Below are positions 22,341 through 44,633 of a DNA stretch of 64,000 nucleotides, piece after piece. A program made the translations under genes and the position numbers. The stretch comes from Deltaproteobacteria bacterium (GTDB lineage Bacteria > Myxococcota > B64-G9): contig JAFGRB010000371.1 in NCBI GenBank assembly GCA_016935365.1, forward strand, positions 4,250-68,249, in the 5' to 3' direction. A model generated the notes under the pieces. The model made no database searches. It was given only the letters and a program-made list of their open reading frames with translations, and was not told the origin of the DNA. Position 1 is the first letter of the stretch. Each line of letters begins with the position of its first letter.

Positions 22341-22341
22341 G

Positions 22342-23229: not shown

Positions 23230-23451
23230 ATGACCGGGCTTGCTTGGTTGGGAGCGGGGATCGGTGCCGGGATGGCGGTCATCGGCGGTGCGTACGGTAT
23301 CGGCAGGCTTGCCGAAGGAGCCATGCACGGCATCTCCAGACAGCCATCGGCCGGTGGGGATATCCGGACGGCCATGCTGATCGCTGCGGCGCTCATCGAG
23401 GGCGTGACCTTTTTTGCCGAGATCGTCTGCATCCTTCTGGCCATCAAGTGA
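23230..23451 (+). CDS. atpE: F0F1 ATP synthase subunit c
   Basis: 73 aa, two-helix hairpin with loop RQP (..GISRQPSAGGD..) and carboxylate helix ..LIEGVTFFAEIV... Confidence 0.9.
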   Translation: MTGLAWLGAGIGAGMAVIGGAYGIGRLAEGAMHGISRQPSAGGDIRTAMLIAAALIEGVTFFAEIVCILLAIK

Positions 23452-23494
23452 TCGCGCCGCTGACCAGCCCTGATCAACGGACCAGGAGATCGAC

Positions 23495-23998
23495 ATGGGA
23501 CTGATGAAGATCGATCCTGGGCTCATCATATGGACGCTCCTGATCTTCGGCGTCCTGCTCGTGATCCTGGGCAGGTTCGTCTGGAGGCCCGTCCTGGATG
23601 CGGTCCGAAAGCGGGAGGAGATGATCCGCGAGTCCGTCCAGCAGGCCGAGAGGATGCAGGCCGAGGCCACGGCGGCCATGGAGGAGCAGAAAGCCGCGCT
23701 CGAGCAGCAGCGCAGGGAGATGGCCGAGACGATCAAGCGCAGCAAGACAGATTCGGAGAAGCTCGCGGCAGAAGCCCGTGAGCGCGCCAAGCGCGAGGCT
23801 GCCGAGATGGTCGAGCAGGCGCGCCGGCAGATCGACGAGGAGCGCAAGCAGGCCATTCAGGCCGTGCGGACAGAGGCGGTGGAGATCGCCCTGGCCGCGG
23901 CCTCTCACTTGCTCCAGAAGAGCCTGGAAGAGGAATCCCATCGCCGGATCGTGGGGGAATTCCTGGACGCCCTCCCGGAGTCCCTGGACCGCCACTGA
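23495..23998 (+). CDS. atpF: F0F1 ATP synthase subunit b
   Basis: N-terminal TM (IIWTLLIFGVLLVILGRFVW), long charged coiled coil (..EQARRQIDEERKQAIQ..). Confidence 0.85.
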   Translation: MGLMKIDPGLIIWTLLIFGVLLVILGRFVWRPVLDAVRKREEMIRESVQQAERMQAEATAAMEEQKAALEQQRREMAETIKRSKTDSEKLAAEARERAKREAAEMVEQARRQIDEERKQAIQAVRTEAVEIALAAASHLLQKSLEEESHRRIVGEFLDALPESLDRH

Positions 23999-29725: not shown

Positions 29726-32700
29726 TCAGCCCTGCGTGCGAAGCTTATAGCCGCAGTGGGGACAGAACTTGGCGTTCGGCGCGATGCTGCAGCGGCACTC
29801 CGGGCAGGTGGGCCGCTCGAGCTTGTAGCCGCAGTGGGGGCAGAACTTGGCCCCTTCCTTGACCTTGCGCTCGCAGCGGGGGCAGACACCCGGCTTGGCC
29901 GGCAGATGGGGTACGGGAGTCTGGGGCTCGGGCGGGGAGAGCAGCTCGCCTTCCTGCTCGATCCGACCCCGCTCGATCTCGGTCTCGATGGCGAGCTCGA
30001 TGGCGGCGCCGATGGCGCGCCCGGCGGCCCCGAATCCGAGCGCTTGGGCCGTCTGCTGGATGAGGTCTGCTCGCGACATGCCGAACTGGAGTTGCAGCAA
30101 GGTGACCGCGGCCTGCCCCAGCTCCTGGGGACAGATCAAGGAGGCCTCGCGGAGCAGCTCATCGTCGCGCCGGCGCACGGGAGGGACGGTCATGTCCTTG
30201 GGCCACAGGAAGTCGCCCCGCTGCGCGAAGAGCCCGGCCTGGAGCCCTCGGGCCACGGCCTTACGGCCGAACGAGCGGACCTTGGTGTAGACCCGATCGA
30301 TCCCGAATCCTTCTGCAGCCCGCCGGATGGCTTCGTCGACTTGGATGGGGCCCTCGACCTTGACGATGGCAGCCAACAGGCGCGATAGCTCGCCAGCGGA
30401 CTGGCTATGGAAACGCGTCGCCTGCTGCTGGCGCTCGTGCTGGAAGACCACATAGGGCTGGAAGCCGTACTGCTCTAGCCGCGCCTCGGCCTTGTGCAGG
30501 CGAGATGAATCATCCTGGGCGTCCTGCGGCTGGGATTCCTGCTCGGGTGGGGACGCGGCGATCTCGATCAGATCCTTCTCGTTCATGGATGGCATCCGGT
30601 ACCAGTCGGGGCTCCAAATCCGGTGAAGCCGCCAGCCCAGCCGTCGCAGGGCATCCTCCCAGCCCCGCTCCCGATCGCGGGCGGTCTGTGCGCGGGCGTA
30701 GGCCATCCCGTCCGTGGCGATGCCCAGGCGGTAGAGCCCGGTCTGCTCTGTGTCGCGCACGGCCAGGTCCAGGTAGAAGGAATCCCGGTCTCCGAGCCGG
30801 CGCTCGACATCCAGCCCGGCCTTGCGCAGCGAGCGGAAGACGAAGTGCTCGAAATCCGTCCCCTGCGCTTCTTGGCCCTGGGCGTCTCCGTCCTCTTCCA
30901 GCCCGAATGCGTACCGGAGAAAGCCGTGCAGGGCCACCACGCCGCGCGCACCCGAGGCGTCGAGCCGGAAGTCCTCCGGCCGGATGGAGCTGAAGACCAC
31001 GCAGCGCTCACGCGCCCGGGTGATGAGGACGTTGAGTCGCCGCCAGCCGCCGTCCTGGTTCAGGGGGCCGAAGTTCATCGACAGCTTCTCGTCGGCCGCG
31101 GGCTTTCCGTAACCGACGCTGAGCGCGATCACGTCCCGCTCGTCGCCCTGGATGGTCTCCAGGTTCTTGACGAAGAAGGGCTCTTCTCGCTCCTGCGAGA
31201 AGAAGGTCTCCAGGGAGTCGTCCTCGCGCCTCAGGCGTTCGATCTCGTCCAGGACGGCCTGCTGCTGGGCCTGGCTGAAGGTGCCCACCCCGATGCTCTT
31301 TTCGGGGTGGGCGCGAGCCTGCTCGAAGACCCAGCGGCCGATCCGCTCGGCCTGGCTCGGGTTCGTGCCGCGGCCCGGCTGATACCAGTCTGCGGGCTCG
31401 TAGGCCACCTGGAGACCCAGCACGCCCTCGCGCGCCTGACAGGCCGGGAAGACCACCAGCTGCTTCTCATAGAACTCCTTGTTGGAGTAAGAGATCAGCG
31501 AATCGTGGCGCGAGCGGTAGTGCCACCGGAGTCGTGTCCTGGCGAGCACCATGCCACCGCGGTCGAGGATGCTCTCCATGTCCTCGATGCCTGCAGCGCC
31601 CTGCGCGTCTTGCTCGTCGTCCGGATCGTCCTCGCCGCCGGCTGAGCGGAAGAAGCCGGTCGGTGGCAGCTGACGCGTGTCGCCCACCAGGACCAGCTGG
31701 CCCGCGCGGGCGATGGCGCCGAGGGCATCGGCCGGTTCGACCTGGCTCGCCTCGTCGAAGATGACCAGATCGAAGTCTACCTTGCCGGGGGCGAGAAACT
31801 GGGACACCGACAGAGGGCTCATCATCATGCAGGGCTTGAGCCGCTGGACGACCTCGCCCGCATCGGCGAGCAGGCGCCGGATGGATCGCCCGCCGCGCTT
31901 GCGGGCGATCTCGCCCTGCAGAAGCCCGAGCTTGGAGCTGGCCGCGACGCCGAAGGCGGTCACCGGCCGGTTCGCAGACAGCTTGGCATGCAGGCGGGCC
32001 GAGGTCTGGCGGGTCCACTCGCGGTCGAGACGGGCGAACTCCGCCCGGGCGGCCTCGTGGTCCCGAGCGTTGAAGGAGCTGAGCTCCGGCTTCTCGCTCA
32101 GGGCGGTCTCGACGAACAGCCGCAGCGCTTGCTTCTCGAGGGCCGGGCCGTAGAGATCGAACGCCAGCGTCTTGCTGCGGGACTTGTCGGCGAACTGAGA
32201 AAGCGGCCCGCTGCGGCACTCCTGCAGAGCATGCTGGAAGGCGATCCAGTCGTGGAGCTTCTCCTGTCCCGCCTGCAGCTCGCTCAAACGCTCGCTCCAT
32301 TCGGCGAAGCCGGCCTCTTGAGCCGGCAGGCCGGCCGAATCGAGCTGCAGGATCTCCACCAGCCTCTCTCGGGCGGCCTGCCACCGGCCCGTCAGGTCCT
32401 GGAACTGCGCCACGGCCTGCTTGATCGTCTTGCGATCGGCGCCTTCGAAGCAGAGCGCGATCCCCCTGGGGCCGATTCTGCCGGAGGTGAGCAGGCGGCG
32501 AGCGGTGTGCAGCCAGTCGGCCAGCCTCGAGATGGACCGAGGATCGGTGCGACTCCCGCGCCAGTAGACGCCGAAGGCCCGGCGGCCCTCCTCGTCCAGG
32601 GCCTTGATGTCGGCCAGAAGGGTCCTGTACGTGGCCAGCTGCTTCAGGTCCTCGAGGGCCTGGCTCGGCACAGGCTGGTGATCTCGGAGGCGGGCCTGCT

Positions 32701-34612
32701 TGAGCTGGCGGCGATCGGCCCAGTAGCTTGGCCGAAAGAAACGGAACACGCTGTGCCAGGTGCGGCGGCCCCGCTTGTAGATGGACTGCCAGTCTACACT
32801 CTTGGCCTCCTCCGGATCGTAACGTCCGATCAGCCAGCTGCGGAGCGCGTCGAGCTTCTCGAGGCTCTCGACGAGCTCCTTGCGCTCGACCGTGTAGTCG
32901 TCCCAGCAGGTGCTCTCGAGCAGGGACGCCGGCACGCCCACCGAGACCGCCAGGTGCTCGGCGGCCTGGAGCGTTTGGCGTGACTCTTCAGGGCCTTGCG
33001 GCATGGGGGCCTCGAGCTGCTTCGCGAGCCCGGAGGCCGCATTGCGGACCGCGGCCGTCAGCTCGTTCAGCGCCTCCAGCCCTTCCCTGGCGGCCTGGAG
33101 CGTGCCCGGGCCGATCTCTCCCAGGCCGGAGTGCCGCCAGAGATGCTGCTCGACGGGCGAGACCGCCTCGCAGCGGCGGCCGAGGCTTGCGGCCAGCTCG
33201 ATGAGCTCTCGGAGCCTTCCCGCGCTCCAGTCCCGGCTTCCAGGCAGCTCGCAGAAGATGTCCGGGCAGTCCGCCAGGGCGAGCATGCGGCCGATCGCCT
33301 CGTATGGGCTCAGTCCAAGAGGTTCTATCGGCGAGTGCAGGGCACTTGCGTAGCCGTTCAGCTGCCTGCGGAGCTGGCTCAGTCGCTCGCCGGTCTCCTC
33401 GTCCACCTCGGCCTCCAGGCGCCCCTCCTCGAGCACCCGGCCGATCTCCGCCAGCGTGGCCTTGCGGTTTGCCTTGGTGGAGTGGAGCTCGAGGCAGAAG
33501 TCGCCCAGCCCCACCCGGTCCAGCCGGCGCTTGACCACCTGCAGCGCGGCCAGCTTCTGGGAGACGAAGAGCACCCGCATATCGGCGCCCAGGCACTCCG
33601 CGATCATGTTGGCGATGGTCTGCGACTTGCCGGTGCCGGGGGGACCTTCGATGACGAAGCTCTTGCCGTGCTTGGCGGCCGCGATGGCTACCTGCTGGCT
33701 GGCATCGGCGTTCATGACCTGGAAGCAGTCGGCCGGCTCGACGCTGTCGGGTGCGGGCAGCCCGTCGAGCGGCCCGGCGGGCTCGCCGCTGCACAGCGTG
33801 CGCAGCAGGGGATGGGCGCAGAGATCGAGCCCGGCGGAGCTCCAGCGCTCCGGATCTAAATCCAGGTACATCAAGTACTTGGTGAAGGAGAACAAACCGA
33901 GCGCCATCTCGTCGGTCACCCGCCAGCCGTCCTGGTCCGAGATGAGCTCGGAGATGGCCGCGCAGCGGGCGGCCAGATCGAATGCCTCCCAGTCCTCTGG
34001 CTCTTCGGGGAGCCGGATGCCGTGGTCCTTCCCGAGCATGGCGGCCAGGCAGGGGTTGAGCAGCGGATCGTCGGGCAGGGCCTGTAGCTGGAACCGCCGC
34101 CTGGCCGAGCTGCGCGAGAGCTCCGCCGGTACGAGGATCAGCGGGGCCTTGAGAGGGTGATCGGGCCTGTCTGGCCGGCGCCACTCCAGAAAGCCCACCG
34201 CCAGGTGCAGGAGGTTGACGCCCTTCTCCTCCAGCGCGTCGCGGGCCGCTCGCTGGGTTCTGAGCAGGTTGGTCTGGAGGTTCTTGGCGTCCAACGGGGT
34301 CTGGAGGAAGCGGTCGCGGTGATGCTTCGGAAGCTCGTTTTCGCCCAGGGCGGTCTCGATCGGCGGCTGCCCTCTGGCGTCCGCCTCTTCGGCCCGGGCG
34401 CGCTCCGGCCTCTCCTCCGCGGACAGGAAGGCAAAGCTCCGCTCCTGCTGGACCAGCGACTGGAAGACGGCCGATGGGAGCTCGTCGCAGATGGGCACCG
34501 TGGTCCGGCGGGTGGGGCGGAAGTTGAGCAAGCGATTGCGGAGGGTCAGATCCAGCAGCAGCTCTCGCGCCCGGTCCAGCTCCTGCCTCACATCCGTCAT
34601 GGATGACTCCAC
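29726..34612 (-). CDS. 1628-aa multidomain SF1 (Upf1-like) helicase: DUF4011 N-domain, AAA_11/AAA_12 helicase core, REase/DUF559-like nuclease region, DUF3320, C-terminal double zinc ribbon
   Basis: N-term ..LLDLTLRNRLLNFRP.. (DUF4011-like). Walker A GPPGTGKSQTIANMI. Motif II DLVIFDEASQV. Motif VI-like ..LNVLITRARERCVVFSSI... ..GIATDGMAYARAQTARDRERGWEDALRRLGWRLHRIWSPDWY.. (DUF559/Vsr-like endonuclease fold). ..DRVYTKVRSFGRKAVARGLQAG.. (DUF3320-like). Tail CPRCERKVKEGAKFCPHCGYKL..CPECRCSIAPNAKFCPHCGYKL. Confidence 0.85.
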   Translation of the reverse strand: MESSMTDVRQELDRARELLLDLTLRNRLLNFRPTRRTTVPICDELPSAVFQSLVQQERSFAFLSAEERPERARAEEADARGQPPIETALGENELPKHHRDRFLQTPLDAKNLQTNLLRTQRAARDALEEKGVNLLHLAVGFLEWRRPDRPDHPLKAPLILVPAELSRSSARRRFQLQALPDDPLLNPCLAAMLGKDHGIRLPEEPEDWEAFDLAARCAAISELISDQDGWRVTDEMALGLFSFTKYLMYLDLDPERWSSAGLDLCAHPLLRTLCSGEPAGPLDGLPAPDSVEPADCFQVMNADASQQVAIAAAKHGKSFVIEGPPGTGKSQTIANMIAECLGADMRVLFVSQKLAALQVVKRRLDRVGLGDFCLELHSTKANRKATLAEIGRVLEEGRLEAEVDEETGERLSQLRRQLNGYASALHSPIEPLGLSPYEAIGRMLALADCPDIFCELPGSRDWSAGRLRELIELAASLGRRCEAVSPVEQHLWRHSGLGEIGPGTLQAAREGLEALNELTAAVRNAASGLAKQLEAPMPQGPEESRQTLQAAEHLAVSVGVPASLLESTCWDDYTVERKELVESLEKLDALRSWLIGRYDPEEAKSVDWQSIYKRGRRTWHSVFRFFRPSYWADRRQLKQARLRDHQPVPSQALEDLKQLATYRTLLADIKALDEEGRRAFGVYWRGSRTDPRSISRLADWLHTARRLLTSGRIGPRGIALCFEGADRKTIKQAVAQFQDLTGRWQAARERLVEILQLDSAGLPAQEAGFAEWSERLSELQAGQEKLHDWIAFQHALQECRSGPLSQFADKSRSKTLAFDLYGPALEKQALRLFVETALSEKPELSSFNARDHEAARAEFARLDREWTRQTSARLHAKLSANRPVTAFGVAASSKLGLLQGEIARKRGGRSIRRLLADAGEVVQRLKPCMMMSPLSVSQFLAPGKVDFDLVIFDEASQVEPADALGAIARAGQLVLVGDTRQLPPTGFFRSAGGEDDPDDEQDAQGAAGIEDMESILDRGGMVLARTRLRWHYRSRHDSLISYSNKEFYEKQLVVFPACQAREGVLGLQVAYEPADWYQPGRGTNPSQAERIGRWVFEQARAHPEKSIGVGTFSQAQQQAVLDEIERLRREDDSLETFFSQEREEPFFVKNLETIQGDERDVIALSVGYGKPAADEKLSMNFGPLNQDGGWRRLNVLITRARERCVVFSSIRPEDFRLDASGARGVVALHGFLRYAFGLEEDGDAQGQEAQGTDFEHFVFRSLRKAGLDVERRLGDRDSFYLDLAVRDTEQTGLYRLGIATDGMAYARAQTARDRERGWEDALRRLGWRLHRIWSPDWYRMPSMNEKDLIEIAASPPEQESQPQDAQDDSSRLHKAEARLEQYGFQPYVVFQHERQQQATRFHSQSAGELSRLLAAIVKVEGPIQVDEAIRRAAEGFGIDRVYTKVRSFGRKAVARGLQAGLFAQRGDFLWPKDMTVPPVRRRDDELLREASLICPQELGQAAVTLLQLQFGMSRADLIQQTAQALGFGAAGRAIGAAIELAIETEIERGRIEQEGELLSPPEPQTPVPHLPAKPGVCPRCERKVKEGAKFCPHCGYKLERPTCPECRCSIAPNAKFCPHCGYKLRTQG

Positions 34613-34731
34613 TCGACCTGTCGTCTCGTGATCTGGATTGTGGCACGGGGCGGGGGCGAGGTGAATGAAAAAAACAGACAGCTATGCTAGACTGCGCCCA
34701 GGATTCGAGGGGGCTGGAACAGGAGAAGGAC

Positions 34732-37197
34732 ATGAAGACGCTTCGCGGAATCTGGGTGGTCTTTCTGGCCTGCACCCTGCTGGCCTTTATCTCATGCGCC
34801 CCGGGCGACCTGCCGGGCAAGCCGGTCCACGTATCGCAGCCCATCGTGGGCGGCTGGCAGACCAGCGACTGGCCTGCTGTCGGGGCACTGGTGCTGGACT
34901 ACGGGAGCTACTGGCAGCAGTTCTGCTCCGGGACCCTGGTCGACAGCGAGTGGGTGCTGACCGCCGGCCACTGCCTGGACCCCGATACCACCGGGATCGA
35001 GGACTATCAGACGAGCTTCTACATCGGGCCCGACGCCCGGAGCGAGTCCGGCGGGGTGGCTTTCCAGGCCGAGTCCTTCCACCTCCACGGCGACTGGGAG
35101 AACAACGACATCGGCCTGATCCACCTGAGCAGCCCGGTGCCCTCTGGCACCGCGACCCCCATCCCCTACAACGACTATAACCTCCAGAACTACGTCCACA
35201 ACCAGATCACCTGGGTGGGCTACGGGGTCAACAATGGCTACAACCAGACCGGCAGCGGCATCAAGCGCTACGGAACCGGATACATCGGCGAGCTCTACTA
35301 CTACCAGTTCACCTACCCGGTCGACGGCGGCCAGATGCCCTGCTCCGGGGACTCGGGCGGCGCCACCCTGATGACCATCGCCTCGGTCGAGCGCGTGGTG
35401 GGCGTCATCTCCGCGGGCGACCAGTACTGCGTCCAGAGCGGTGTGGACACCCGGGTGGACGCCTACAGCAGCTGGATCCACGACGAGATAGAGGGCGGCG
35501 GGACCACCGAATGCGACATCACCGGCGGGGACTGCGGCAACCAGGCCTGCTACCCGGTCGACGTGGACGAGCTGGCCTGCGTGCCCTCGGACGGCATTCG
35601 CATCGGCCAGGCCTGCGACGAGGAGGGCCAGGAATCCTCGGTGGCCTGCGCGGACGGCGGCATATGCATCGACATCCCGGAGGCGAGCGGTGGCTACGGC
35701 GAGGTCTGCTACCAGTTCTGCGTGGACGACTCGGTCTGCGAGCAGGACGAGATGTGCACCTTGCCCATCTTCGAGGACATCGACGACATCGGCATCTGCC
35801 TGCCCGAGCCCGAGACCTGCCGCATCAGCGGCGGCGACTGCGATGCGGGCTCGGCCTGCTACCCGACCACCAGCGGCGAGTTCTACTGCTTCCCGAGCGC
35901 CGGCGCGGGTCTCGGCGCTGCCTGCAACCCGAGCCAGGTCGATCCGCTTCCCTGCGGCGACGGCCTGGTCTGTCTGGGCTCGGGCACGTCGGGCAACTGC
36001 TATGACTTCTGCCAGCGCGATGCAGACTGCCCTTCGCAGTACGAGTGCAGCATCTTTCAGGGCGAGGAGGACCTCGGCTACTGCAGCTGCGTCGACGACG
36101 ACAACGACAACTGGTGCGCCTACGACGACTGCGACGACAACGACCGGAACACCCACCCGGGCGCGACCGAGCTGTGCGGAGACAACAAGGACAACGACTG
36201 CGATAACTTGACCGACGAGGATTGCACATGCACGGACCTGGACGGGGACGGCTACTGCGCGGATGTGGACTGCGACGATCGCGATCGCAACACCCACCCG
36301 GGGGCGACCGAGATCTGCGGTGACGGCAGGGACAACGACTGCGACGGCCAGACCGATGAGAGCTGCGGGTGCACGGATCAAGACGGGGACGGCTACTGCG
36401 CTGAAGAGGACTGCGACGACGGCGATCGGAACACCCACCCGGGGGCGACGGAGCTCTGCGGCGACAACAAGGACAATGACTGCGACGGGAGCACCGACGA
36501 GGGCTGCGGCTGCACGGATCTGGACGGAGACGGCTACTGCGCCGGGGTGGACTGCGACGACAGGAACAAGAACAACCACCCGGGTGCGACCGAGCGCTGC
36601 GGGGACGGGATGGACAACGACTGCGATGGTCAGACCGACGAGAACTGCGGCACCTGCTACGACCTGGATGGAGACGGCTATTGCCAGGGAGATGACTGCA
36701 ACGACATCGACGCCAGCGTCAACCCGGGTGCGACCGAGCGCTGCGGGGACGGGAAGGACAACGACTGCGACGGTAGCACCGACGAGGGCTGCGGCACCTG
36801 CACGGACAGCGACGGGGACGGGTACTGTCTGCCCGCCGATTGCAACGATGGCAACGCGAGCGTCCACCCTGACGGCCAGGAGATCTGCGGAGACGGCGTG
36901 GACAACGACTGCAGCGGCCAGACGGACGAGGGCTGCGCCGAGTGCGTCTCGGACGGCGACTGCGACGACGGCAACCCCTGCACCCGGGACACGTGCAGCG
37001 GTGGGATCTGCGCGCACGAGGACGAGCCGGACGGTATGATCTGCGGGGAGGGCATGGCCTGCCAGATCGGCGAGTGCTTCCCCTGGACCGATCCGGAGAG
37101 CTCCGGCTGTCAGGTGGCGGCCGGCCGCGGCGCGCCGGCGACGCTTTGGCTCGCGCTGGTCGGCGTGCTGTGGGGGATTCGCCGGCGAAGGGCCTGA
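34732..37197 (+). CDS. secreted trypsin-like (S1) serine protease with ~7 MopE-type Cys/Asp-rich repeats and MYXO-CTERM-like tail (821 aa)
   Basis: Signal peptide MKTLRGIWVVFLACTLLAFISCAP. IVGGWQ..LTAGHC (His), GDSGG (Ser). Repeats DGDGYCA.VDCDD.DRNTHPGATE.CGDG.DNDCDG.TDE.C. C-term ..SSGCQVAAGRGAPATLWLALVGVLWGIRRRRA (Cys + TM + Arg cluster). AGGAGA Shine-Dalgarno 5 nt upstream of ATG 34732. Confidence 0.8.
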   Translation: MKTLRGIWVVFLACTLLAFISCAPGDLPGKPVHVSQPIVGGWQTSDWPAVGALVLDYGSYWQQFCSGTLVDSEWVLTAGHCLDPDTTGIEDYQTSFYIGPDARSESGGVAFQAESFHLHGDWENNDIGLIHLSSPVPSGTATPIPYNDYNLQNYVHNQITWVGYGVNNGYNQTGSGIKRYGTGYIGELYYYQFTYPVDGGQMPCSGDSGGATLMTIASVERVVGVISAGDQYCVQSGVDTRVDAYSSWIHDEIEGGGTTECDITGGDCGNQACYPVDVDELACVPSDGIRIGQACDEEGQESSVACADGGICIDIPEASGGYGEVCYQFCVDDSVCEQDEMCTLPIFEDIDDIGICLPEPETCRISGGDCDAGSACYPTTSGEFYCFPSAGAGLGAACNPSQVDPLPCGDGLVCLGSGTSGNCYDFCQRDADCPSQYECSIFQGEEDLGYCSCVDDDNDNWCAYDDCDDNDRNTHPGATELCGDNKDNDCDNLTDEDCTCTDLDGDGYCADVDCDDRDRNTHPGATEICGDGRDNDCDGQTDESCGCTDQDGDGYCAEEDCDDGDRNTHPGATELCGDNKDNDCDGSTDEGCGCTDLDGDGYCAGVDCDDRNKNNHPGATERCGDGMDNDCDGQTDENCGTCYDLDGDGYCQGDDCNDIDASVNPGATERCGDGKDNDCDGSTDEGCGTCTDSDGDGYCLPADCNDGNASVHPDGQEICGDGVDNDCSGQTDEGCAECVSDGDCDDGNPCTRDTCSGGICAHEDEPDGMICGEGMACQIGECFPWTDPESSGCQVAAGRGAPATLWLALVGVLWGIRRRRA

Positions 37198-37217
37198 GGG
37201 ACAGAGGAGACAGACCG

Positions 37218-39296
37218 ATGATCCGTCGAACAGCAGGCCTGGCCGCACTGCTCCTTCTGGCGAGCTGCGGAAAGGAGACGGAGGGCCTGGCCGAGAGGGC
37301 GAGCCCGGTCATCGCCGGGATCGAGACCTCGGCCTGGCCCTCGATCGGGGCGCTGGTCCTGGACGACTATGGTTACTTCGAGAACTTCTGCTCGGGCACC
37401 CTGATCGCCTCGCGCTGGGTGTTGACCGCCGCGCATTGCCTCGATGGCACTTACCCGGCCAGCCAGGTCAGCTTCTACACCGGGCCCGACGTCCACAATC
37501 CGTCCAGCCAGTACACGTTCAGCGCGCAGCGCTACTACATCCACTCGCGCTGGGACACCGATCTCATGATCAACGACATCGGGCTGGTCTATCTGGCGGA
37601 GAGCGCCTCGCCCACGCCCATGACCTACAACCGCAACAACATCGCCGGGAGCACCGGCGATCCCATCACCTGGGTGGGCTACGGCGTCAACTGGGTCAAC
37701 CCCAACAACCCGAACGACCAGCGCGGCAGCGGGCTCAAGCGCTACGGGACAAGTTACATGGGCGCGGTGGCGCTAACCTGGGTGGACTACGAGGCCTCGG
37801 GCGGGCAGATGACCTGCTTCGGGGACTCGGGCGGCGCGACCCTGATGGACGTCGGCGGCCAGGAGCGGCTGGTGGGAATCAACTCGGGCGTCTCCGACAG
37901 CTACTGCACCGGCGTGGGCGTGAGCACCCGGGTGGACGCCTACTCCGACTGGATCCAGGACATCATGCAGAACGGCTCCAGCCCGACCAACTGCGACATC
38001 ACCGGCGGCACGTGTCGCAACAACGCCTGCTATCCACTCCAGGACGGGGTCTACCAGTGCCTGCCGACCCAGGGCATCCCGCAGGGCCAGCCCTGCGAGC
38101 CCTCGATCGTGGAGTCGCTGGCCTGTGAGGATGGCAGCCTGTGCCTGGACCTCGATCCCGCCGAGGGAGGCAGCGGACAGATCTGCTACCCGCTCTGTCT
38201 TGTGGACCAGCACTGCGGGGCGGGCGAGCGTTGCCTGACGCCCGTGCTCCACGGCCTGAGCGTGGGCGCCTGCGTCGATCGGCTCACCACCTGCGAGATC
38301 ACGGGTGGAGACTGCGGGACGGGCCAGGCCTGCCATCCGGTGGATGAGCACGAGGCCTACTGCTATGCGAGCAATGGGGCCGGCGAGGGTACGAGCTGCA
38401 ACCCGAACGTGTCGCCCGGTGAAGCGCCGCTGCCCTGCGCCGACGGGCTGGGCTGTATTCGGATCTCCGGTGCGAACGGCCGCTGTGCCGCCTACTGCGA
38501 GACAGCGGCCGACTGCCCGGACGGATTCGACTGCATCATGCTGTCGTCGTGGCACGGCTTCTGCAATTGCACCGATCGAGATGAAGACGGCTACTGCGAA
38601 GGTGCCGACTGCGACGATGGGGATGAGCATGTCCATCCGGGTGCCGAGGAGATCTGCGGGGACGGTGTGGACAACGACTGCGACCAGCTCACCGACGAGG
38701 GCTGCACCTGCACCGATCTCGATGGGGACGGCTACTGCGCCGATGAGGACTGCGACGATCGCAACCGCCAGAACCACCCCGGTGCCACGGAGCGATGCGG
38801 GGACGGGGTGGACAACGACTGCGACCAGCTCACCGACGAGGGCTGCTCGAGCTGCACGGATCGGGACGGGGACGGCTACTGCGCCGAGAGCGGCGACTGC
38901 GATGATCGCAACTCGACCGTGAGCCCGGCCGCGGATGAGCGCTGCTTCGACGGCATCGACAACGACTGCGACGATCTCACCGACGAGGACTGCGGCTCGG
39001 GCGATTGCGCCCAGGACAGCGACTGCGACGATGACAATCCTTGCAGCCGGGACTGGTGCGAGGCGAGCTTCTGTTTCCATGAGGACGAGCCGGACGGCAT
39101 GCTGTGCGGGGAGGGCATGGCCTGTCAGATCGGCGAGTGCTTCCCCTGGGGAGATCCGCAGGCCGGAGGCTGTCAGGTGGCTTCCAGACGGGGCCGGGAC
39201 GGGGCTTCGGGCTCGCTCGTGCTCCTTCCGCTCGCTGTGACCTGCATCCTTCGCAGGCGCAGGAAGTTACTTGCCTTGCCGGACCGCCGGGGCTAG
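37218..39296 (+). CDS. paralogous secreted S1 serine protease with MopE-type repeats and MYXO-CTERM-like tail (692 aa)
   Basis: Lipoprotein-type signal MIRRTAGLAALLLLASCGK. LTAAHC / GDSGG triad. Repeats ..DEDGYCEGADCDDGDEHVHPGAEEICGDGVDNDCDQLTDEGC... C-term ..GGCQVASRRGRDGASGSLVLLPLAVTCILRRRRK. Domain order matches the preceding gene. Confidence 0.8.
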   Translation: MIRRTAGLAALLLLASCGKETEGLAERASPVIAGIETSAWPSIGALVLDDYGYFENFCSGTLIASRWVLTAAHCLDGTYPASQVSFYTGPDVHNPSSQYTFSAQRYYIHSRWDTDLMINDIGLVYLAESASPTPMTYNRNNIAGSTGDPITWVGYGVNWVNPNNPNDQRGSGLKRYGTSYMGAVALTWVDYEASGGQMTCFGDSGGATLMDVGGQERLVGINSGVSDSYCTGVGVSTRVDAYSDWIQDIMQNGSSPTNCDITGGTCRNNACYPLQDGVYQCLPTQGIPQGQPCEPSIVESLACEDGSLCLDLDPAEGGSGQICYPLCLVDQHCGAGERCLTPVLHGLSVGACVDRLTTCEITGGDCGTGQACHPVDEHEAYCYASNGAGEGTSCNPNVSPGEAPLPCADGLGCIRISGANGRCAAYCETAADCPDGFDCIMLSSWHGFCNCTDRDEDGYCEGADCDDGDEHVHPGAEEICGDGVDNDCDQLTDEGCTCTDLDGDGYCADEDCDDRNRQNHPGATERCGDGVDNDCDQLTDEGCSSCTDRDGDGYCAESGDCDDRNSTVSPAADERCFDGIDNDCDDLTDEDCGSGDCAQDSDCDDDNPCSRDWCEASFCFHEDEPDGMLCGEGMACQIGECFPWGDPQAGGCQVASRRGRDGASGSLVLLPLAVTCILRRRRKLLALPDRRG

Positions 39297-39297
39297 C

Positions 39298-39606
39298 ATG
39301 GCCGCCATGCTAAAGTGGATCACGCCTCTCATCTGCTCGCTGGCCTGCCTGCTCTCCTGGGGCTGCGGCAGCGCCTGCCGAGATCTGGCCAACAAGGTCT
39401 GCGATTGCCAGCCCACCCGGGCCAAGAAGGAGCGCTGCGAGATCGCCGTCAGCGTAGCCGACGACAACCTGGACGCGTCGGACGCCGAGGAGGAGGCCTG
39501 CCAGCAGATCCTCGACTCCGGCTCCTGCACATGTGATGCGGTCCTGACGGGAGACCTGGCCGCCTGCGGCCTGGCCCACAGCACCCTGGACCTCTCCGAA
39601 GACTGA
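39298..39606 (+). CDS. small Cys-rich putative lipoprotein (102 aa, 8 Cys in mature part)
   Basis: ATG 1 nt after the protease stop (TAGcATG). Signal MAAMLKWITPLICSLACLLSWGC. Mature part CGSACRDLANKVCDCQ..CEIAV..ACQQILDSGSCTCDAV..LAACG. Confidence 0.45.
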   Translation: MAAMLKWITPLICSLACLLSWGCGSACRDLANKVCDCQPTRAKKERCEIAVSVADDNLDASDAEEEACQQILDSGSCTCDAVLTGDLAACGLAHSTLDLSED

Positions 39607-39773
39607 TGGACTCGTAAAAAGTCCATCAACGGCCGGCGCTGACAGGCGCCGGCCGCCAAGAGGGGGGTGGAACCACTTGAATTCACTTCAAGTGGCGGGG
39701 GAGGGAAGATCCCTCCCCCGCCGAGCAGAAGTCGCGAAGCGACTTTTTGCGAGGTCAACAAGACTAGCCCTAA

Positions 39774-39805
39774 AACAAGCGCGGCTTCCAAACCGCGTTT
39801 GTTTG
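39774..39805. terminator. candidate bidirectional intrinsic terminator between convergent genes
   Basis: Extended imperfect palindrome cccTAAAACAAGCGCGG-cttccaaa-CCGCGTTTGTTTgaggg (12-17 bp stem), T-runs on both strands at the stem base. Lies between the + gene ending 39606 and the - gene ending 39855. Confidence 0.4.
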
Positions 39806-39854
39806 AGGGCTGGCCGCCCGAAGGGCGGTCGTTTTAGGGTGAAGCTGCTGGAAT

Positions 39855-41183
39855 TCAGCGCCCGCTTCTCGGGACGAAGGTGGCCTGGTTCGCCTTCCAC
39901 CACGCTCGCCAGGCGGGCTGCATCTTGCGGCCCTCGGCCAGGCTGGGGCGCTTCCAGTCGTAGCCGTCTCCCCAGGAGCGGAAGAAGGACTGGCCGGTCC
40001 AGACGTGGAGGCGCATCTCGGCCTGGGCGCGCACCTGGTGATCCGAATGGGTCAGGGCATCGATGCAGACCGGGATGGCCTTCGGGATGTGGCCCTCGGC
40101 CAGATAGTACATGGCCGAAAAGACTTCCCAGCGCGGCTTTGCAGCCAGGATCTCGAAGGCGGCCCGGCTCGGACGCATGGCGAGCCCGGTCCAGACCTCC
40201 GGGTGATCCGCGGACCCCCAGGACGCGAGCAGGGGCAGGAAGTCGTCCTGGCGGGCGAAGACGATCGCCTCGCGGGCCGCGGTCATGCGGGAGCTGGGCC
40301 AATCGTGGCGGGCCCGGCGGGCGAGCCGTTTCTTCCAGTCGGACTGCATGCGGGCGCGCTCGGCAGGGCTGCCGTGGCGGATCGTGAGATCCAGCCTGGC
40401 GTAGTCGGTAAGTCCCTGGAAAGCCCAGCGCTCGACGCGCACGCGGAGCGACTGGGGCACGTGGTTCAAGACCGGCGAGTCGGGGCCCTGCTCGTGGATC
40501 ACGCGCACGCGGACCGGCTTGTCATCGCGCCGGTCGAAGGGATGGCCGTGGCGGTCGACGCGGATGCGCGCACGCTCGGACTCGGGCAGGGCCGCCACCG
40601 CGGCCCGGACGGCAGGGGCCTGGCGAGGCAGCTCGAATCCGCTGTGGGCGTGGAAGCAGTGCAGCTCGTAGCGCCCCGGCTGCGCGATGGCCGCCCAGCG
40701 CTGAAGCGCGAGCCAGTACGAGCGGGGCTTACCGGGCCGCACGTCGTAGCTGCTGGACAGACCGCCCATGTAGACGAGGGACGCGGGGTCTCCGTAGGGA
40801 TCCAACACCGCCTTGCCCTCGGCATCCAGCAGCACGAAGAGGAAGTTGTCATCCCGGCCGCGGGCGCGGTAGTTGCCCCCGATGTGCTCTGTCCACTTGC
40901 CCGCCTGCACCTCGATCCGGAACTCCACCGGGATGGGTTCGCCCAGGAGGAAATCGTGGCGCTCGAGCCGGAAGGAGCGCGCAAGCCCTTGGGGGATGTC
41001 CGGGGCGGGGGACTCGACGGCCTCCGCTTCGATCGCCCGGTTGAATCGAAGCGCAGAGCGGGTAGCGCCAGCGGGTGGCAGCTCGAGCCAGTACGGCTTG
41101 ATCCGGATCTCGATCTCTAGGCCTTCGGCCCAGGCGAGGCACGGGATGGCGATCAGCCCTAACGCAAGCGCGGATCGAAGCAT
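39855..41183 (-). CDS. secreted hypothetical protein (442 aa) with C-terminal HEAT/PBS-like repeats
   Basis: Signal peptide MLRSALALGLIAIPCLAWAEG. C-terminal ..AIPVCIDALTHSDHQVRAQAEMRL.. resembles HEAT-type repeats. No catalytic motif recognised. Confidence 0.55.
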   Translation of the reverse strand: MLRSALALGLIAIPCLAWAEGLEIEIRIKPYWLELPPAGATRSALRFNRAIEAEAVESPAPDIPQGLARSFRLERHDFLLGEPIPVEFRIEVQAGKWTEHIGGNYRARGRDDNFLFVLLDAEGKAVLDPYGDPASLVYMGGLSSSYDVRPGKPRSYWLALQRWAAIAQPGRYELHCFHAHSGFELPRQAPAVRAAVAALPESERARIRVDRHGHPFDRRDDKPVRVRVIHEQGPDSPVLNHVPQSLRVRVERWAFQGLTDYARLDLTIRHGSPAERARMQSDWKKRLARRARHDWPSSRMTAAREAIVFARQDDFLPLLASWGSADHPEVWTGLAMRPSRAAFEILAAKPRWEVFSAMYYLAEGHIPKAIPVCIDALTHSDHQVRAQAEMRLHVWTGQSFFRSWGDGYDWKRPSLAEGRKMQPAWRAWWKANQATFVPRSGR

Positions 41184-41198
41184 CGTCGGCCCGGATGC

Positions 41199-42515
41199 TC
41201 AGGTGCCCGAGAACTGAACCGGCTCGAAGCGCATGCTGGGCGTACGCCAGGAGGAGTAGACATACGCGTCCTTGCCCATCTCGGCCAGCTTCTTCCAGAA
41301 CTCGAGGTGGTTGCCGGCCAGGTTCATCTCTGCCAGGGGACGGGCCCTTCGGCCCTTCTCGATCCAGTAGCCGCGGATGCCGATCGAAAAGTCGCCGGTG
41401 GCCGGGTTGGAGTTGCCGCCCGAGAAGCCCGTGATCAGAATCCCCGTCCCCATGGCGGCGAGCAGGCCGTCGAGGTCCCGCTCTCCGGCCTCGAAGACCA
41501 GGTTGGACGTCCCGGCTGTGGTGGGTTCCTTGCCCAGCTTGGACGCGTAGTAGGTGTCGAGGAAGAAGGTTTCGAGCTTGCCGCGCGTGAAGATGGGCCG
41601 CTTGATCGTGGACATGCCCTCGCCGTCATAGGTCCTGGAGGACAGCCCTCGCGGCAGGAGGGGATCGTCGACGATGGTCAGAGCCGCAGAGCCGATGTCC
41701 TGCCCGAGACGGTCGGCCAAGAAGGAGCGCTTCTGCTGGATGTCCTGGCCGTGCAGCGGCCCGATCAGGTCACCGAGCAGCCGGCCAGCCACGGCGTTCT
41801 CGATCGCGCAGGCGTACTGGCCGCTCTTCTCCGGCTTCGCACCCCGCATGCCCAGCGCCCGGCGCGTGGCCTCCTGGCCAATGGTGGCGATCGGCGGAAG
41901 ATCGGCCTTGTGCCGCTGGACCGCGTACCACCAGCCTTCCGGCTTGCGGTCGCCCTCATCCTTGACCGAGGTCTCGGCGAACAGCGCAAAGGTGGAGCGC
42001 CGGCGCTGGCCCTCCATGCCGTTGGAACAGACCATGGCGCTCTCGCTGGTCGAGTTGGAGCAGGATGAGGTCACCGAGATGATCTCGCCTGCGTCCGGGT
42101 TGGCGCGAGCGGCTTCCTCCAGGGACCTCGCGAGCTTGCGCCTTTCGGACGGGCTCATGGACGCCGTGTCGAAGACCTCCAGATCGCCCTGGAACCGGCT
42201 CGCATATCGGGCGGGGTCCGGCAGCTTGCGATGGGGATCGGCCGCCAGCACGCGGGTGGTGGCCACGGTGTCGTCCAGGAAGTGCTCGATGGCCGAGTCG
42301 CGCAGATCGCTCGTGGAGTTGGACGAGTAGCGTCCGTCCACGTAGAGCGTGACGCCCACGCCCATACGGGTGGACTCGCGCAGCCTGTCGATCTTGCCAT
42401 CTCGCCACTCCAGCTCTGAGTCCCGCGAACGGTAGACCGAGGCCTGCACGCCCTGCGCCCCGCGCGCCTTGGCCTTGTGCGCGACCTTGCGCGCCATCTC
42501 CAGCAGATCGCTCAT
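41199..42515 (-). CDS. pmbA: TldE/PmbA-family metallopeptidase partner subunit
   Basis: 438 aa with TldD/PmbA fold features (..GVGVTLYVDGRYSSNSTSD.., C-terminal ..RFEPVQFSGT). Lacks the HExxxH of TldD and has no signal peptide. 4-nt overlap with tldD. Confidence 0.8.
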   Translation of the reverse strand: MSDLLEMARKVAHKAKARGAQGVQASVYRSRDSELEWRDGKIDRLRESTRMGVGVTLYVDGRYSSNSTSDLRDSAIEHFLDDTVATTRVLAADPHRKLPDPARYASRFQGDLEVFDTASMSPSERRKLARSLEEAARANPDAGEIISVTSSCSNSTSESAMVCSNGMEGQRRRSTFALFAETSVKDEGDRKPEGWWYAVQRHKADLPPIATIGQEATRRALGMRGAKPEKSGQYACAIENAVAGRLLGDLIGPLHGQDIQQKRSFLADRLGQDIGSAALTIVDDPLLPRGLSSRTYDGEGMSTIKRPIFTRGKLETFFLDTYYASKLGKEPTTAGTSNLVFEAGERDLDGLLAAMGTGILITGFSGGNSNPATGDFSIGIRGYWIEKGRRARPLAEMNLAGNHLEFWKKLAEMGKDAYVYSSWRTPSMRFEPVQFSGT

Positions 42516-44068
42516 GACGCCCTCCCGCCGATGGAGATGGCCCCGACCCGGACCGTGGGCAGCCCGAAGCCCACCGGTACACGCTGGCCGTCCTTGCCGC
42601 AGGAGCCGCCGCCGGAGAACAGAAGCATGTCGTTGCCCACCATCTCCACGTGCTCCAGCACCTTGGGCCCGGAGCCGATCAAGTTGGCGTCCTTGACCAC
42701 CCGGGTCAGCTTGCCCTTCTCGATGAGCCGGCCGTGCTTGAGGTAGAAGGTGAAGTCGCCTGCGCCGATGTGGACCTGCCCGTTGGAGAAGACCTCGGCA
42801 TACAGCCCCTTGTCGACCGAGGCGATGATCTCTGCGGGGTCGTGCGGCCCGGAGACCATGTAGGTGTTCCGCATGCGGGGCACGGGCGGGTAGCGGAACG
42901 ACTGGCGGCGCCCGGAGCCGGTGGAGGCGACCGAGTAGTGCTTGGCCGAGATCCGATCGTGCATGTAGGAGCGCAGAATCCCCTTCTCGACCAGGACGGT
43001 GCGCTGGGCCGGGGCGCCCTCGTCGTCGATGTTGATAGAGCCGCGCATGCGATCGCAGGTCCCGTCGTCGCAGATCGTGACCTCGTCGGGGGCGACGCGC
43101 TTGCCGATCCGGTCGGCGTAGATGGAGACGCCCTTGCGGTTGAAGTCGGCCTCCATGCCGTGCCCCATGGCCTCGTGCAGCAGGATGCCGCTCACCCCCG
43201 GCGCGAGCACCACCGGCAGCTCTCCGACCGGGGCGCTGACCGCATCGAAGAGCTTGGTGGTGTAGTCGGCCGCCTCGTTCGAGAGCTTGTCGAGCACCTC
43301 GGGGCTGAAGAAGCGCAGCCCGTCTCGAGACGATACGCTCTGGTATCCGGTCTCGATCTGCTTGTCCTTGGCCGCCACGCAGGTGACGTACATCACGGCC
43401 ATGGGCTGCTCATCCTCGACCAGCAGGCCTTCGGAGTTGGCCACCAGGATGTGCGAGGTCTGATCGGCCAGGAAGATCGTCACCTTGATGATGCGCGGAT
43501 CCCGGCCGCGCGCCTTCGCGTTGGCCCGCTCGATCAAGGGCAGCTTCTTGTCGATGCCCACCTCGCTCCAGGGCAGCTCGACGGTGTAGCGGCTTTCTAT
43601 TTTGCGCGCGGCGAGCGGGGCTGCACGGATGCCGGGTGCGGCCGCATCGGCCACCGAGGCTGCGGTCTCAGCCGTCTCCAGCATGGCCTGCTCGGTCAGA
43701 TCCTCACAGTAGGCGAAGCCCGTGGCGTCCCCTTTGAGCACGCGTATGCCGGCGCCCAGATCGACGTTGGAGTAGGCGCGGTTGATCGCGGCATCCTCCA
43801 TGCCGACCCAGTGGCTGATCTTGTGCTGAAGGAAGACGTCGCAGAAGTCACCGCCGCGCGTCAGGCCCTTGCGGATGACCTTGCCGATCAGGCCGCCGTC
43901 CACCCCGAAGCCGTCGAAGTAGGTGCTGTGGGCCCCAGCTTCCCGGCCTGCTGCTCGGTGCAGACCGGTGCTGCCTCCGGTCGCACAACCCAGGGCCGGG
44001 ACCGACGCTGCGGCGGTGCCAGCTCCGATCCACTTGAGAAAGTCTCGACGATTGATGCCTTTTTGCAT
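42512..44068 (-). CDS. tldD: TldD-family metallopeptidase with twin-arginine (Tat) signal peptide (518 aa from ATG 44068; ORF track extends to 44353)
   Basis: MQKGINRRDFLKWIGAGTAAASVPALGCA is a canonical Tat signal (RRDFLK, AxA site) with GGAAGGAG Shine-Dalgarno upstream. Catalytic HEAMGHGMEAD (HExxxH) and C-terminal ..TVRVGAISIGG... Confidence 0.85.
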   Translation of the reverse strand: MQKGINRRDFLKWIGAGTAAASVPALGCATGGSTGLHRAAGREAGAHSTYFDGFGVDGGLIGKVIRKGLTRGGDFCDVFLQHKISHWVGMEDAAINRAYSNVDLGAGIRVLKGDATGFAYCEDLTEQAMLETAETAASVADAAAPGIRAAPLAARKIESRYTVELPWSEVGIDKKLPLIERANAKARGRDPRIIKVTIFLADQTSHILVANSEGLLVEDEQPMAVMYVTCVAAKDKQIETGYQSVSSRDGLRFFSPEVLDKLSNEAADYTTKLFDAVSAPVGELPVVLAPGVSGILLHEAMGHGMEADFNRKGVSIYADRIGKRVAPDEVTICDDGTCDRMRGSINIDDEGAPAQRTVLVEKGILRSYMHDRISAKHYSVASTGSGRRQSFRYPPVPRMRNTYMVSGPHDPAEIIASVDKGLYAEVFSNGQVHIGAGDFTFYLKHGRLIEKGKLTRVVKDANLIGSGPKVLEHVEMVGNDMLLFSGGGSCGKDGQRVPVGFGLPTVRVGAISIGGRAS

Positions 44069-44216
44069 CCGGCTCCTTCCTTTCCAGCGCAATGGACGAC
44101 TTCGGCTCCTTCTCAAGATAGGGGGCTTGCCCGGCACGGTCAAGACGTGAAACTGGAACCCGTTAGAGACCTGTGCTATCTCGAGAAACAGGTGCAGATG
44201 GCGGAGCGGAGGACCG

Positions 44217-44633
44217 ATGGACAAGCAGGAGTATCTCCATGAGTTGAATCGCTTGCGCAAGGAGTTCGCCTCGGCGACCGTCAACCCCGGCTCGTTCGAG
44301 TGCTCGGGCTGCGGGCAGTGCACCAGCTGCATGTTCTGCAAGGACTGCCGCAACTGCTACAAGTGCACCCACTGCAATACCTGTGAGCAGTGCTCCCATT
44401 CCAGCCACTCGGTCCAGTGCCGGCAGTGCCACAACTGCGCCTACTGCACCGACAGCGTCAACTGCTCGAGCTCTTCCTATCTGGTCATGTGCGAGAGCTG
44501 CGTGGACTGCACGTACTGCTTCGGGTGCGTGGGCCTCGGCAAGAGGGACTTCCATATCCTCAACCAGGCCTACGACCGCCAGACCTACTTCGAGATCACG
44601 ACCAAGCTCAAGCGGGCCCTGGGGATCCGCTAG
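44217..44633 (+). CDS. cysteine-rich small protein (138 aa; 26 Cys, mostly period-3 CxxC spacing)
   Basis: MDKQEYLHELNRLRKEFASATVNPGSFE-CSGCGQCTSCMFCKDCRNCYKCTHCNTCEQC-SHSSHSVQ-CRQCHNCAYCTD-SVNCSSSSYLVM-CESCVDCTYCFGCVGLG-KRDFHILNQAYDRQTYFEITTKLKRALGIR. Cys-free ~28-aa N-terminal and ~25-aa C-terminal helix-like regions flank the core. Protein-like codon usage. Confidence 0.6.
   Translation: MDKQEYLHELNRLRKEFASATVNPGSFECSGCGQCTSCMFCKDCRNCYKCTHCNTCEQCSHSSHSVQCRQCHNCAYCTDSVNCSSSSYLVMCESCVDCTYCFGCVGLGKRDFHILNQAYDRQTYFEITTKLKRALGIR

Follow-up and report, generated by a model that had tools for sequence, protein, structure and literature searches.

The stretch of DNA analyzed here, called the window throughout, comprises 64,000 nucleotides from a Deltaproteobacteria bacterium (GTDB lineage Myxococcota, B64-G9; assembly GCA_016935365.1, contig JAFGRB010000371.1, positions 4,250 to 68,249 of the forward strand) and has a GC content of about 68%. 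The interval from 34732 to 39606 carries three open reading frames (ORFs) on the plus strand, with GC content at third codon positions (GC3) as high as in genuine genes. Two long ORFs, genes 1 and 2, encode S1 proteases with Cys-rich extensions, and a short ORF, the small gene (GC3 of 0.84), encodes a Cys-rich lipoprotein; coordinates of all features are collected in Table 1. The spacer between genes 1 and 2 is 20 nt long and contains a GAGGAGA ribosome-binding site. An earlier sequence-only reading had joined all three ORFs, proposing that the small protein is translationally coupled to gene 2 and might serve the proteases. We think it likely that the interval instead holds two units: an operon for surface-displayed S1 proteases and an independent small-lipoprotein gene that an inversion placed at its end.

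Several comparisons support the view that genes 1 and 2 encode trypsin-fold proteins and form a tandem of paralogous secreted S1 proteases, as had been proposed. The Pfam Trypsin family (PF00089, cutoff 20.6 bits) matched gene 1 at 79.5 bits and gene 2 at 91.6 bits, and the catalytic triads are intact within TAxHC, NDIxL, and GDSGG motifs (H80/D126/S208 in gene 1 and H73/D120/S204 in gene 2). A sequence search with the protease domain matched 242 chymotrypsin-family chains in the PDB at E <= 1e-5, and VesB of Vibrio cholerae (4lk4) matched with an E value of 1.1e-10. Alignment to human tryptase brought the TAGHC and GDSGG motifs into register and placed IVGG at residue 38 of gene 1 at the mature N terminus of tryptase; gene 2 has the variant VIAG at residue 31 in its place. 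In the same alignment, position '189', six residues before the catalytic Ser, is Met rather than Asp in both proteases, so their P1 specificity is probably not trypsin-like. Identity between the two products is 50% across the protease domain and the region that follows it and 62% across their repeats and tails. Gene 1 is closest to protA of the related locus L011 (57%), the protease domain of gene 2 is closest to protB of that locus (55%), and cross-comparisons give 45 to 50%. As each paralogue is closer to its L011 orthologue than to the other paralogue, the duplication is, judging by these identities, an old one that predates the split from the L011 lineage, with both copies retained.

The flanks of the catalytic domain are elaborate. 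Signal peptides had been noted before, but the lipobox on both proteases had gone unnoticed. With a lipobox defined as a signal peptide ending in [LVI][ASTVI][GAS]-C, gene 2 appears to begin with a lipoprotein-type signal and a canonical lipobox, LASC (37218-37268, Cys17), and gene 1 with a lipoprotein-type signal and a relaxed one, FISC (34732-34797, Cys22). The protease domain is followed, ahead of the repeats, by a middle region of about 200 aa that the sequence-only reading missed and that consists in both proteins of two tandem modules with the pattern CxITGGDC…ACYP…C.PS…C.DG..C. Across 12 homologues this region has 34 invariant columns, mostly Cys, and more than 50 protease homologues hold at least one of its modules. 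An AlphaFold2 (AF2) model of the region is all-beta with a pLDDT of 88.9. The region had no Pfam match at E <= 10, and a Foldseek search against the PDB found no convincing relative (best E value of 0.02); EGF-, Dkk-, and colipase-like folds, which reached Foldseek probabilities of at most 0.54, were not accepted. From the model and its conservation, the module is a candidate new domain family that is widespread among these proteases. Farther toward the C terminus, beyond the repeats, both proteins have a Cys knot with the motif CDDxNPCxRDxC…ECFPW, in a region of 76% nucleotide identity between the two genes (36924-37131 and 38987-39194); the knot gave only a weak, sub-threshold match to Dicty_CTDC.

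The repeats that separate the middle region from the Cys knot match PF11617 (Cu-binding_MopE, cutoff 27 bits) in six stretches of gene 1 (207 bits) and three of gene 2 (87 bits). Both Pfam families expected by the sequence-only reading were thus matched in both genes, and its count of six to seven repeats per gene holds for gene 1 but not for gene 2. The 30-aa cores of gene 1 begin at 36130, 36271, 36412, 36553, 36697, and 36841, and successive repeats recur every 141 nt (47 aa) rather than every 38 aa or so, as first suggested; Tandem Repeats Finder (TRF) reported 76 to 79% matches in gene 1. MopE of Methylococcus capsulatus, from which PF11617 takes its name, has in common with these proteins a Cys/Asp-rich 'putative metal-binding motif' of about 30 aa. 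Only this short motif is held in common, nothing in the window proteases speaks for copper binding, and Pfam itself calls the metal binding of PF11617 'putative'. The Asp-rich pattern of the repeats (DxDxDG, DNDCD) looks more like that of a Ca2+-binding spacer. A literature search on PF11617 returned nothing directly relevant.

The nucleotide sequences of the repeats had been described as nearly identical, and the locus had been proposed as a hotspot of recombination. One version of this idea holds that gain and loss of repeat modules, or their exchange between the two genes, is still under way. Orthologues do vary in their number of repeats (six in gene 1, four in L011 protA, and three in the L012 protease), and L011 protB is without the middle modules that gene 2 has. 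The gene 1 repeats are also somewhat more alike internally, with a mean of 76% identity over the 90-nt cores (range, 66 to 83%), than they are to those of the orthologue (67.5%), and exact runs reach 33 nt within gene 1 and 39 nt within gene 2. However, no pair of repeats exceeds 83% identity over 90 nt, which is far from near-identity. Cores within gene 2 average about 75% (69 to 80%), and between the genes the mean is only 72% (66 to 79%) with longest exact runs of 21 to 24 nt. The two genes have been distinct since before the L011 split, and slow repeat turnover fits these values better than present-day exchange. We therefore regard an active hotspot as improbable. What survives of the proposal is the variation in repeat number: the comparisons lend weak support to the hotspot idea and indicate repeats that turn over on evolutionary time scales, with no sign of a currently active hotspot.

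At their C termini both proteases have a tripartite tail, in which GC is followed by about 12 to 15 residues, a hydrophobic stretch, and RRRR. This is the Cys-transmembrane-Arg layout of MYXO-CTERM proteins, for which cleavage by the myxosortase MrtX and surface display dependent on a type II secretion system (T2SS) have been described (PMC11980579). The host is of the expected kind: syntenic relatives are labelled Myxococcota, Myxococcales, or Bradymonadales, and identical proteins occur in a Deltaproteobacteria metagenome-assembled genome (MAG). The MYXO-CTERM model TIGR03901.2 has a cutoff of 20 bits, and its authors describe it as short and divergent, with membership requiring curator review (bioRxiv 10.1101/2023.06.07.544157). 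The tails of the L011 orthologues pass it at 24.3 and 35.9 bits. Among 44 tails from homologues, 39 give a match to TIGR03901 at E <= 1; homologue tails also match TIGR03382 and the tail parts of the NF038112 and NF045638 models. Short extensions past the Arg cluster are common among homologues. By these comparisons the gene 1 tail is probably MYXO-CTERM-like, and that of gene 2 appears to be a degenerate version of the same signal.

The overall architecture is already represented in the databases. The first 450 aa of gene 2, used as a query, retrieved 180 proteins, dozens of which carry both Trypsin and PF11617; they come from Deltaproteobacteria, Myxococcota, and Bradymonadales MAGs and bear names such as 'trypsin-like serine protease', 'S1 family peptidase', and 'MYXO-CTERM domain-containing protein'. 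The Trypsin-PF11617 proteins of Myxococcota and Bradymonadales MAGs are direct homologues, 28 to 57% identical and with the same domain order, that differ only in repeat number and in the presence or loss of the middle modules. The gene 2 product itself is present at 100% identity as an NCBI MAG protein named 'trypsin-like serine protease' (P0012). Among the 62 homologues of at least 500 aa, a lipobox-like N terminus was found in 44, a Cys-transmembrane-RR tail in 48, and both in 40. The same tandem pair lies between a DUF4011 helicase and PmbA/TldD in two other genomes (L011/L013 and L026). The window pair is accordingly a further instance of an annotated architecture, with both its layout and its tandem arrangement already on record. 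In L027 (1-7900), a single-copy homologue adjoins a bacterial microcompartment cluster (BMC, EutN, aldehyde dehydrogenase, and an RnfC-like protein), which indicates that the family is not bound to the position between helicase and PmbA/TldD.

Characterized proteins offer two points of comparison. VesB sets a precedent for an S1 protease that is anchored at the cell surface and carries a sorting tag at its C terminus (PMC11980579; bioRxiv 10.64898/2026.02.05.703148). It is a chymotrypsin-family enzyme with an N-terminal propeptide, a noncatalytic domain, and a tripartite C-terminal surface signal, a layout that the window proteases probably share. In contrast to VesB, which carries GlyGly-CTERM and depends on rhombosortase and the T2SS, the window proteases have a Cys-based tag, for which a CPBP-type myxosortase rather than a rhomboid protease would be expected. 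Their stalk is built of Cys-rich beta modules and MopE repeats rather than an Ig-fold domain, they have a lipoprotein-type N-terminal signal, and Met replaces Asp at '189'. MYXO-CTERM surface proteins such as TraA, the 'myxosortase-dependent' M36 metallopeptidase of NF038112, and the phytase-like NF045638 likewise combine an exported head with a Cys-rich stalk and a Cys-transmembrane-Arg tail. Unlike these, the window proteins have S1 protease heads, no dedicated NCBIfam model describes their architecture, most members add an N-terminal lipobox, and the tails score at the borderline (gene 1) or below threshold (gene 2).

The small protein belongs to a different and much broader family. An ORF for a lipoprotein of 102 aa and eight Cys, beginning at an ATG (39298) 1 nt past the gene 2 stop, is present as described earlier. 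Its putative lipobox, LSWGC, has an unusual Trp at -2, and the eight further Cys follow the lipobox Cys. Ten close homologues are 102 to 106 aa long and 55 to 67% identical, and nine Cys are invariant among close relatives. When 1.84 billion representative proteins were searched with a profile of the family, 293 clusters, defined at 50% identity, matched at E <= 1e-3, almost all of them 85 to 125 aa long, and in 41 diverse members eight Cys are invariant, with the lipobox Cys, preceded mostly by Gly or Ala, kept in at least 90%. An unconserved ORF, which would have spoken against a gene here, is clearly not what was found. Longer 'members' (P0135 and P0200) appear to be gene calls extended too far at the N terminus, and one metagenomic protein (P0278, 208 aa) is a lipoprotein in which the 8-Cys domain occurs twice in tandem.

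An AF2 model of the small protein is helical and of moderate confidence, with a pLDDT of 72. Searches for known relatives returned no meaningful Pfam match at E <= 10, only two chance matches to NCBIfam models over the 41 members, zero PDB matches with the family profile, and no Foldseek fold match (best E value of 2.5). A saposin-like fold was rejected, at template modeling (TM) scores of 0.26 to 0.35. Taken with its genomic placement, described below, the protein appears to be a disulfide-bonded lipoprotein of the envelope that is expressed independently, probably at a high level, and is unrelated to the proteases. A metal-binding or redox role is possible.

The independence of the small gene is most visible in its promoter. 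In close relatives a sigma-70-type pattern, TTGACW-N17/18-TAGMRT (that is, TTGAC[A/T] and TAG[C/A][A/G]T), is followed after 6 to 11 nt by the start codon. It occurs exactly once in 23 of 25 related loci, always directly upstream of the small gene; the other two are L012, which has no small gene, and L025, which holds a 38%-identical relative. The window site differs from the family pattern by one mismatch, has one counterpart elsewhere in the 64 kb, which makes two sites where 0.37 would be expected, and ends 7 nt before ATG 39307. It lies inside the 3' end of gene 2, whose TAG stop (39294-39296) forms the first half of the -10 box.

This arrangement bears directly on where the small gene begins. 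The frame offers two ATGs: 39298, which gives 102 aa and the 1-nt gap, and 39307, which gives 99 aa and a gap of 10 nt. Because ATG 39298 falls within the conserved -10 hexamer TAGCAT, the true start is most likely ATG 39307, judging by the family alignment. An ATG within the -10 box is also present in L001, L004, and L011, but it is out of frame in L001 and L011 and hence is not a conserved start. The NCBI record begins the small protein at the position equal to 39307. With a -10 box 6 to 11 nt from the start codon, standard spacing implies an mRNA that is leaderless or nearly so, with a 5' untranslated region of roughly 0 to 5 nt. A literature search on leaderless transcription in Myxococcus returned nothing directly relevant. 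Database start codons of this family are likely to have been miscalled in places: in L004 (8001-8318, P0004) the recorded start lies inside the TAGCAT -10 box, and the conserved start is the second ATG, 7 nt past the box. A 19-nt palindrome with 9-bp arms, TAGCATGGC-C-GCCATGCTA (39294-39312), spans the gene 2 stop and both small-gene ATGs. As a mask of the start codon on read-through transcripts it was rejected, with a z score of -0.8 and no conservation in relatives, and we consider it incidental.

Gene neighborhoods in related genomes, scanned for the small gene with the closer alignment A1 since the 41-member alignment was too diverged, separate it further from the proteases. In 11 of 13 genome loci with the small gene, and in all other metagenome loci, there is no S1 protease within about 6 kb. 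In these protease-free loci the gene is flanked either by PmbA and the helicase or by BcrAD/methyltransferase and Mur ligase/M20, and the same flanking genes surround the window locus more widely. Outside the window, L011/L013 and L026 are the only cases in which the protease pair adjoins the small gene. In both, the small gene is encoded on the other strand and converges on the second protease gene, with 3 and 11 nt between them; it shares the direction of PmbA/TldD and has retained its promoter. Every relative has the small gene oriented as BcrAD, the methyltransferase, TldD, and PmbA are, and the same-strand adjacency with gene 2 is found in none of the related loci. Since the small gene is reversed only in the window, these orientations are most simply explained by an inversion, specific to this lineage, that took in both the gene and its promoter. 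The last ten codons of gene 2, KLLALPDRRG (39264-39293), cover the promoter exactly, which fits a reading frame that runs through imported sequence. By itself this extension proves nothing about an inversion, because short post-Arg extensions are common in homologues.

The same observations argue against a small lipoprotein that is devoted to the proteases, whether as inhibitor, chaperone, metal donor, or kin-discrimination cargo, and made in fixed proportion to them through translational coupling. The 1-nt gap between TAG and ATG 39298, the continuous run without a terminator, the adjacency of the small gene and the protease pair in L011/L013 and L026, and the export and Cys-rich nature of both products all invite that reading. 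We nevertheless judge it very unlikely. The gene is on the opposite strand in L011 and L026 and usually occurs without an S1 protease nearby, the single-protease loci L012 and L027 are without it, and it has its own conserved promoter, with ATG 39298 inside the -10 box. Ecotin and other small periplasmic inhibitors of S1 proteases are likewise small exported proteins that could in principle adjoin protease genes. The window protein, however, has no sequence or fold similarity to ecotin, to Kazal or Kunitz inhibitors, or to another family, is predicted to be helical with four disulfides, and has a neighborhood that is not tied to proteases. Both the coupling and the roles as partner that had been proposed for it thus give way to a stand-alone family, and the small gene is not supported as a translationally coupled partner.

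The least probable of the alternatives is that the lipoprotein works with an exported TldD/PmbA pair as substrate, regulator, or envelope partner. In its favor, the small gene immediately follows PmbA, in the same orientation, in L005, L007, L008, L011/L013, and L026, and a twin-arginine translocation (TAT) signal on the window TldD would put both outside the cytoplasm. However, in most genome loci the small gene is flanked by BcrAD/methyltransferase and Mur ligase/M20, with TldD/PmbA absent from its vicinity; the gene always has its own promoter; and in the window a 442-aa gene and the inversion stand between it and the pair.

Together, these data favor a model in which a two-gene operon of old paralogues makes cell-surface S1 proteases and the small lipoprotein gene is a separate unit. 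By analogy with chymotrypsin-family zymogens, VesB, and the published MYXO-CTERM pathway (PMC11980579), the protease precursors would be exported by Sec via the lipoprotein-type signal peptide and would fold in the periplasm with many disulfides. A short N-terminal propeptide may then be removed, exposing the IVGG or VIAG N terminus as in chymotrypsin-family zymogens. The catalytic domain would be held off the cell by a stalk of two Cys-rich beta modules, three to six MopE repeats that probably bind Ca2+, and the Cys knot. At the other end, the tail Cys would be lipidated, the tail would be cleaved by a myxosortase, and the T2SS would move the protease to the outer surface, where its likely role is the degradation of extracellular proteins for nutrition or predation. 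The small gene would be transcribed from its own sigma-70-type promoter as a leaderless or near-leaderless mRNA with a probable start at ATG 39307. On this model, the inversion carried the small gene and its promoter next to gene 2, whose reading frame now extends into the promoter and ends at the TAG within the -10 box.

Several results weigh against this model. In its promoter half, the -35 element of the window, TTGCCT, is weaker than those of relatives, a generic promoter scanner reported nothing in 34400-39900, and the site fits only 8 of 12 consensus positions. As there is no terminator between gene 2 and the small gene, transcripts probably read through from one into the other, and re-initiation at 39298 or 39307 is possible. 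The sorting tails, for which a failure to match sorting-signal models had been named as the outcome that would count against them, gave no clean pass. The gene 1 tail scored 16.7 bits with TIGR03901.2 at full length and passes only if scanned alone (24.5 bits), and gene 2 gave no full-length match and 17.1 to 17.5 bits, below threshold, for its tail with or without the extension. The proposed layout of Cys, transmembrane segment, and Arg cluster stands in both proteins, but the match to the model is borderline in gene 1 and below cutoff in gene 2. No CPBP/myxosortase or T2SS gene was present among the window ORFs scanned, which were part of those in the 64 kb. The published MYXO-CTERM model assumes an ordinary signal peptide, not a lipoprotein signal combined with a C-terminal lipid anchor. 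Finally, the start site, propeptide, Ca2+ binding, and substrates are features that we infer.

A more ambitious proposal combines two claims, that the small lipoprotein represents a new and widespread envelope family of the Myxococcota and that the S1 protease is a doubly lipid-anchored zymogen. We offer the two jointly only as a tentative idea, with the odds against it. The near-consensus and unusually conserved promoter, predicted to give leaderless mRNA, suggests an abundant constitutive envelope component or a metal- or redox-active small protein. If the second claim were true, activation at IVGG would sever the N-terminal lipid anchor; the combination of N-terminal lipobox and C-terminal MYXO-CTERM lies outside the published myxosortase model.

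For annotation, the two-unit reading carries a caution: here, stop and start codons 1 nt apart do not show that two genes are coupled or their products partners, as the stop is part of the promoter of the next gene. The case also illustrates how a small inversion can lengthen a coding sequence through a promoter, and how start codons of a small family can be wrong in databases, since an ATG within the -10 box can be called as the start in the window as in L004. The proteases add another instance of surface-displayed enzymes in Myxococcota, probably dependent on myxosortase and the T2SS, and so bear on predation and extracellular digestion. For specialists, the locus offers a Cys-rich beta module without a relative among solved structures and a broad lipoprotein family with a probably leaderless promoter.

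Table 1. Features of the protease-lipoprotein locus and its surroundings (window coordinates)
Feature	Position	Strand	Basis or description
Gene 1, S1 protease precursor	34732-37197	+	821 aa; ORF and GGAGAAGG ribosome-binding site upstream
Gene 1 middle region, tandem pair of Cys-rich all-beta modules, ~100 aa each	35494-36096	+	homologue alignment, AF2 model
Gene 1 MopE-type Cys/Asp-rich repeats, six	36130-36930	+	Pfam PF11617; TRF
Gene 1 C-terminal Cys knot, CAECVSDGDCDDGNPCTRDTC...ECFPW	36934-37086	+	nucleotide identity to gene 2, motif positions
Gene 1 tail, GCQVAAGRGAPATLWLALVGVLWGIRRRRA, MYXO-CTERM-like (probable)	37105-37194	+	TIGR03901 scores
Gene 2, paralogous S1 protease precursor	37218-39296	+	692 aa; ORF and ribosome-binding site, Trypsin/MopE matches
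Gene 2 middle region, same two modules	37986-38567	+	homology to gene 1 middle region
Gene 2 MopE cores, three	38610, 38751, 38898	+	Pfam PF11617
Gene 2 C-terminal Cys knot	39006-39149	+	same module as gene 1
Gene 2 tail, GCQVASRRGRDGASGSLVLLPLAVTCILRRRRK, plus 10-aa extension KLLALPDRRG (39264-39293)	39168-39293	+	TIGR03901, codon mapping
Putative small-gene sigma-70-type promoter	39271-39299	+	-35 TTGCCT 39271-39276, 17-nt spacer, -10 TAGCAT 39294-39299
Small gene, Cys-rich lipoprotein precursor	39307-39606	+	99 aa; 102 aa from ATG 39298
Two adjacent strong perfect hairpins	39604-39655	both	begin at small gene stop codon
Helicase-like gene, DUF4011/AAA_11/AAA_12/MTES_1575/DUF3320 and double zinc-ribbon	29726-34612	-	1628 aa; Pfam; upstream neighbor
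442-aa ORF	39855-41183	-	convergent with small gene; signal-peptide-like N terminus, GC3 0.88
PmbA/TldD metallopeptidase pair	41199-42515 and 42512-44356	both -	beyond 442-aa ORF

The surroundings of the interval are those of a core chromosome. The window contains yidC (3472-5223, -), gyrB (13193-15649, +), gyrA (18053-20608, +), and genes for the a and b subunits of ATP synthase (22327-23998, +), which indicates that the locus is part of the core chromosome rather than of a mobile element and probably lies close to the replication origin. Upstream, the DUF4011 helicase is a conserved neighbor that adjoins the small gene in L005 to L009 and the protease pair in L011 and L026; the MTES_1575 part of its gene is nuclease-like. 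Downstream, the 442-aa ORF begins 15 nt downstream of PmbA. It had no Pfam match at E <= 10 and no counterpart in the seven related loci checked (L004 to L012), and the rearrangement behind the small-gene inversion may have brought it in. The PmbA/TldD pair beyond it is probably exported, judging by the predicted TAT signal of TldD.

Between the small gene and the 442-aa ORF, the paired hairpins have minimum free energies of -38.8 and -39.5 kcal/mol on the two strands (z = -7.0 and -7.3). A terminator-like call with a T run was obtained on the minus strand, and the pair is probably a bidirectional terminator common to the two convergent genes. The spacer (39607-39855) holds three further hairpins; as a repeated element it was rejected, with no second copy in the window or in related loci. 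No Rfam family and no tRNA were found in 34000-41500, and long antisense ORFs across the locus (for example, 34792-37248, -) were set aside as high-GC artifacts. Farther along the window, a 1414-aa BcrAD_BadFG/DUF2229 activase-like protein (47204-51448, -) is syntenic with the small gene in many relatives, and a 791-aa ORF (52812-55187, +) fuses acetate kinase and phosphotransacetylase domains.

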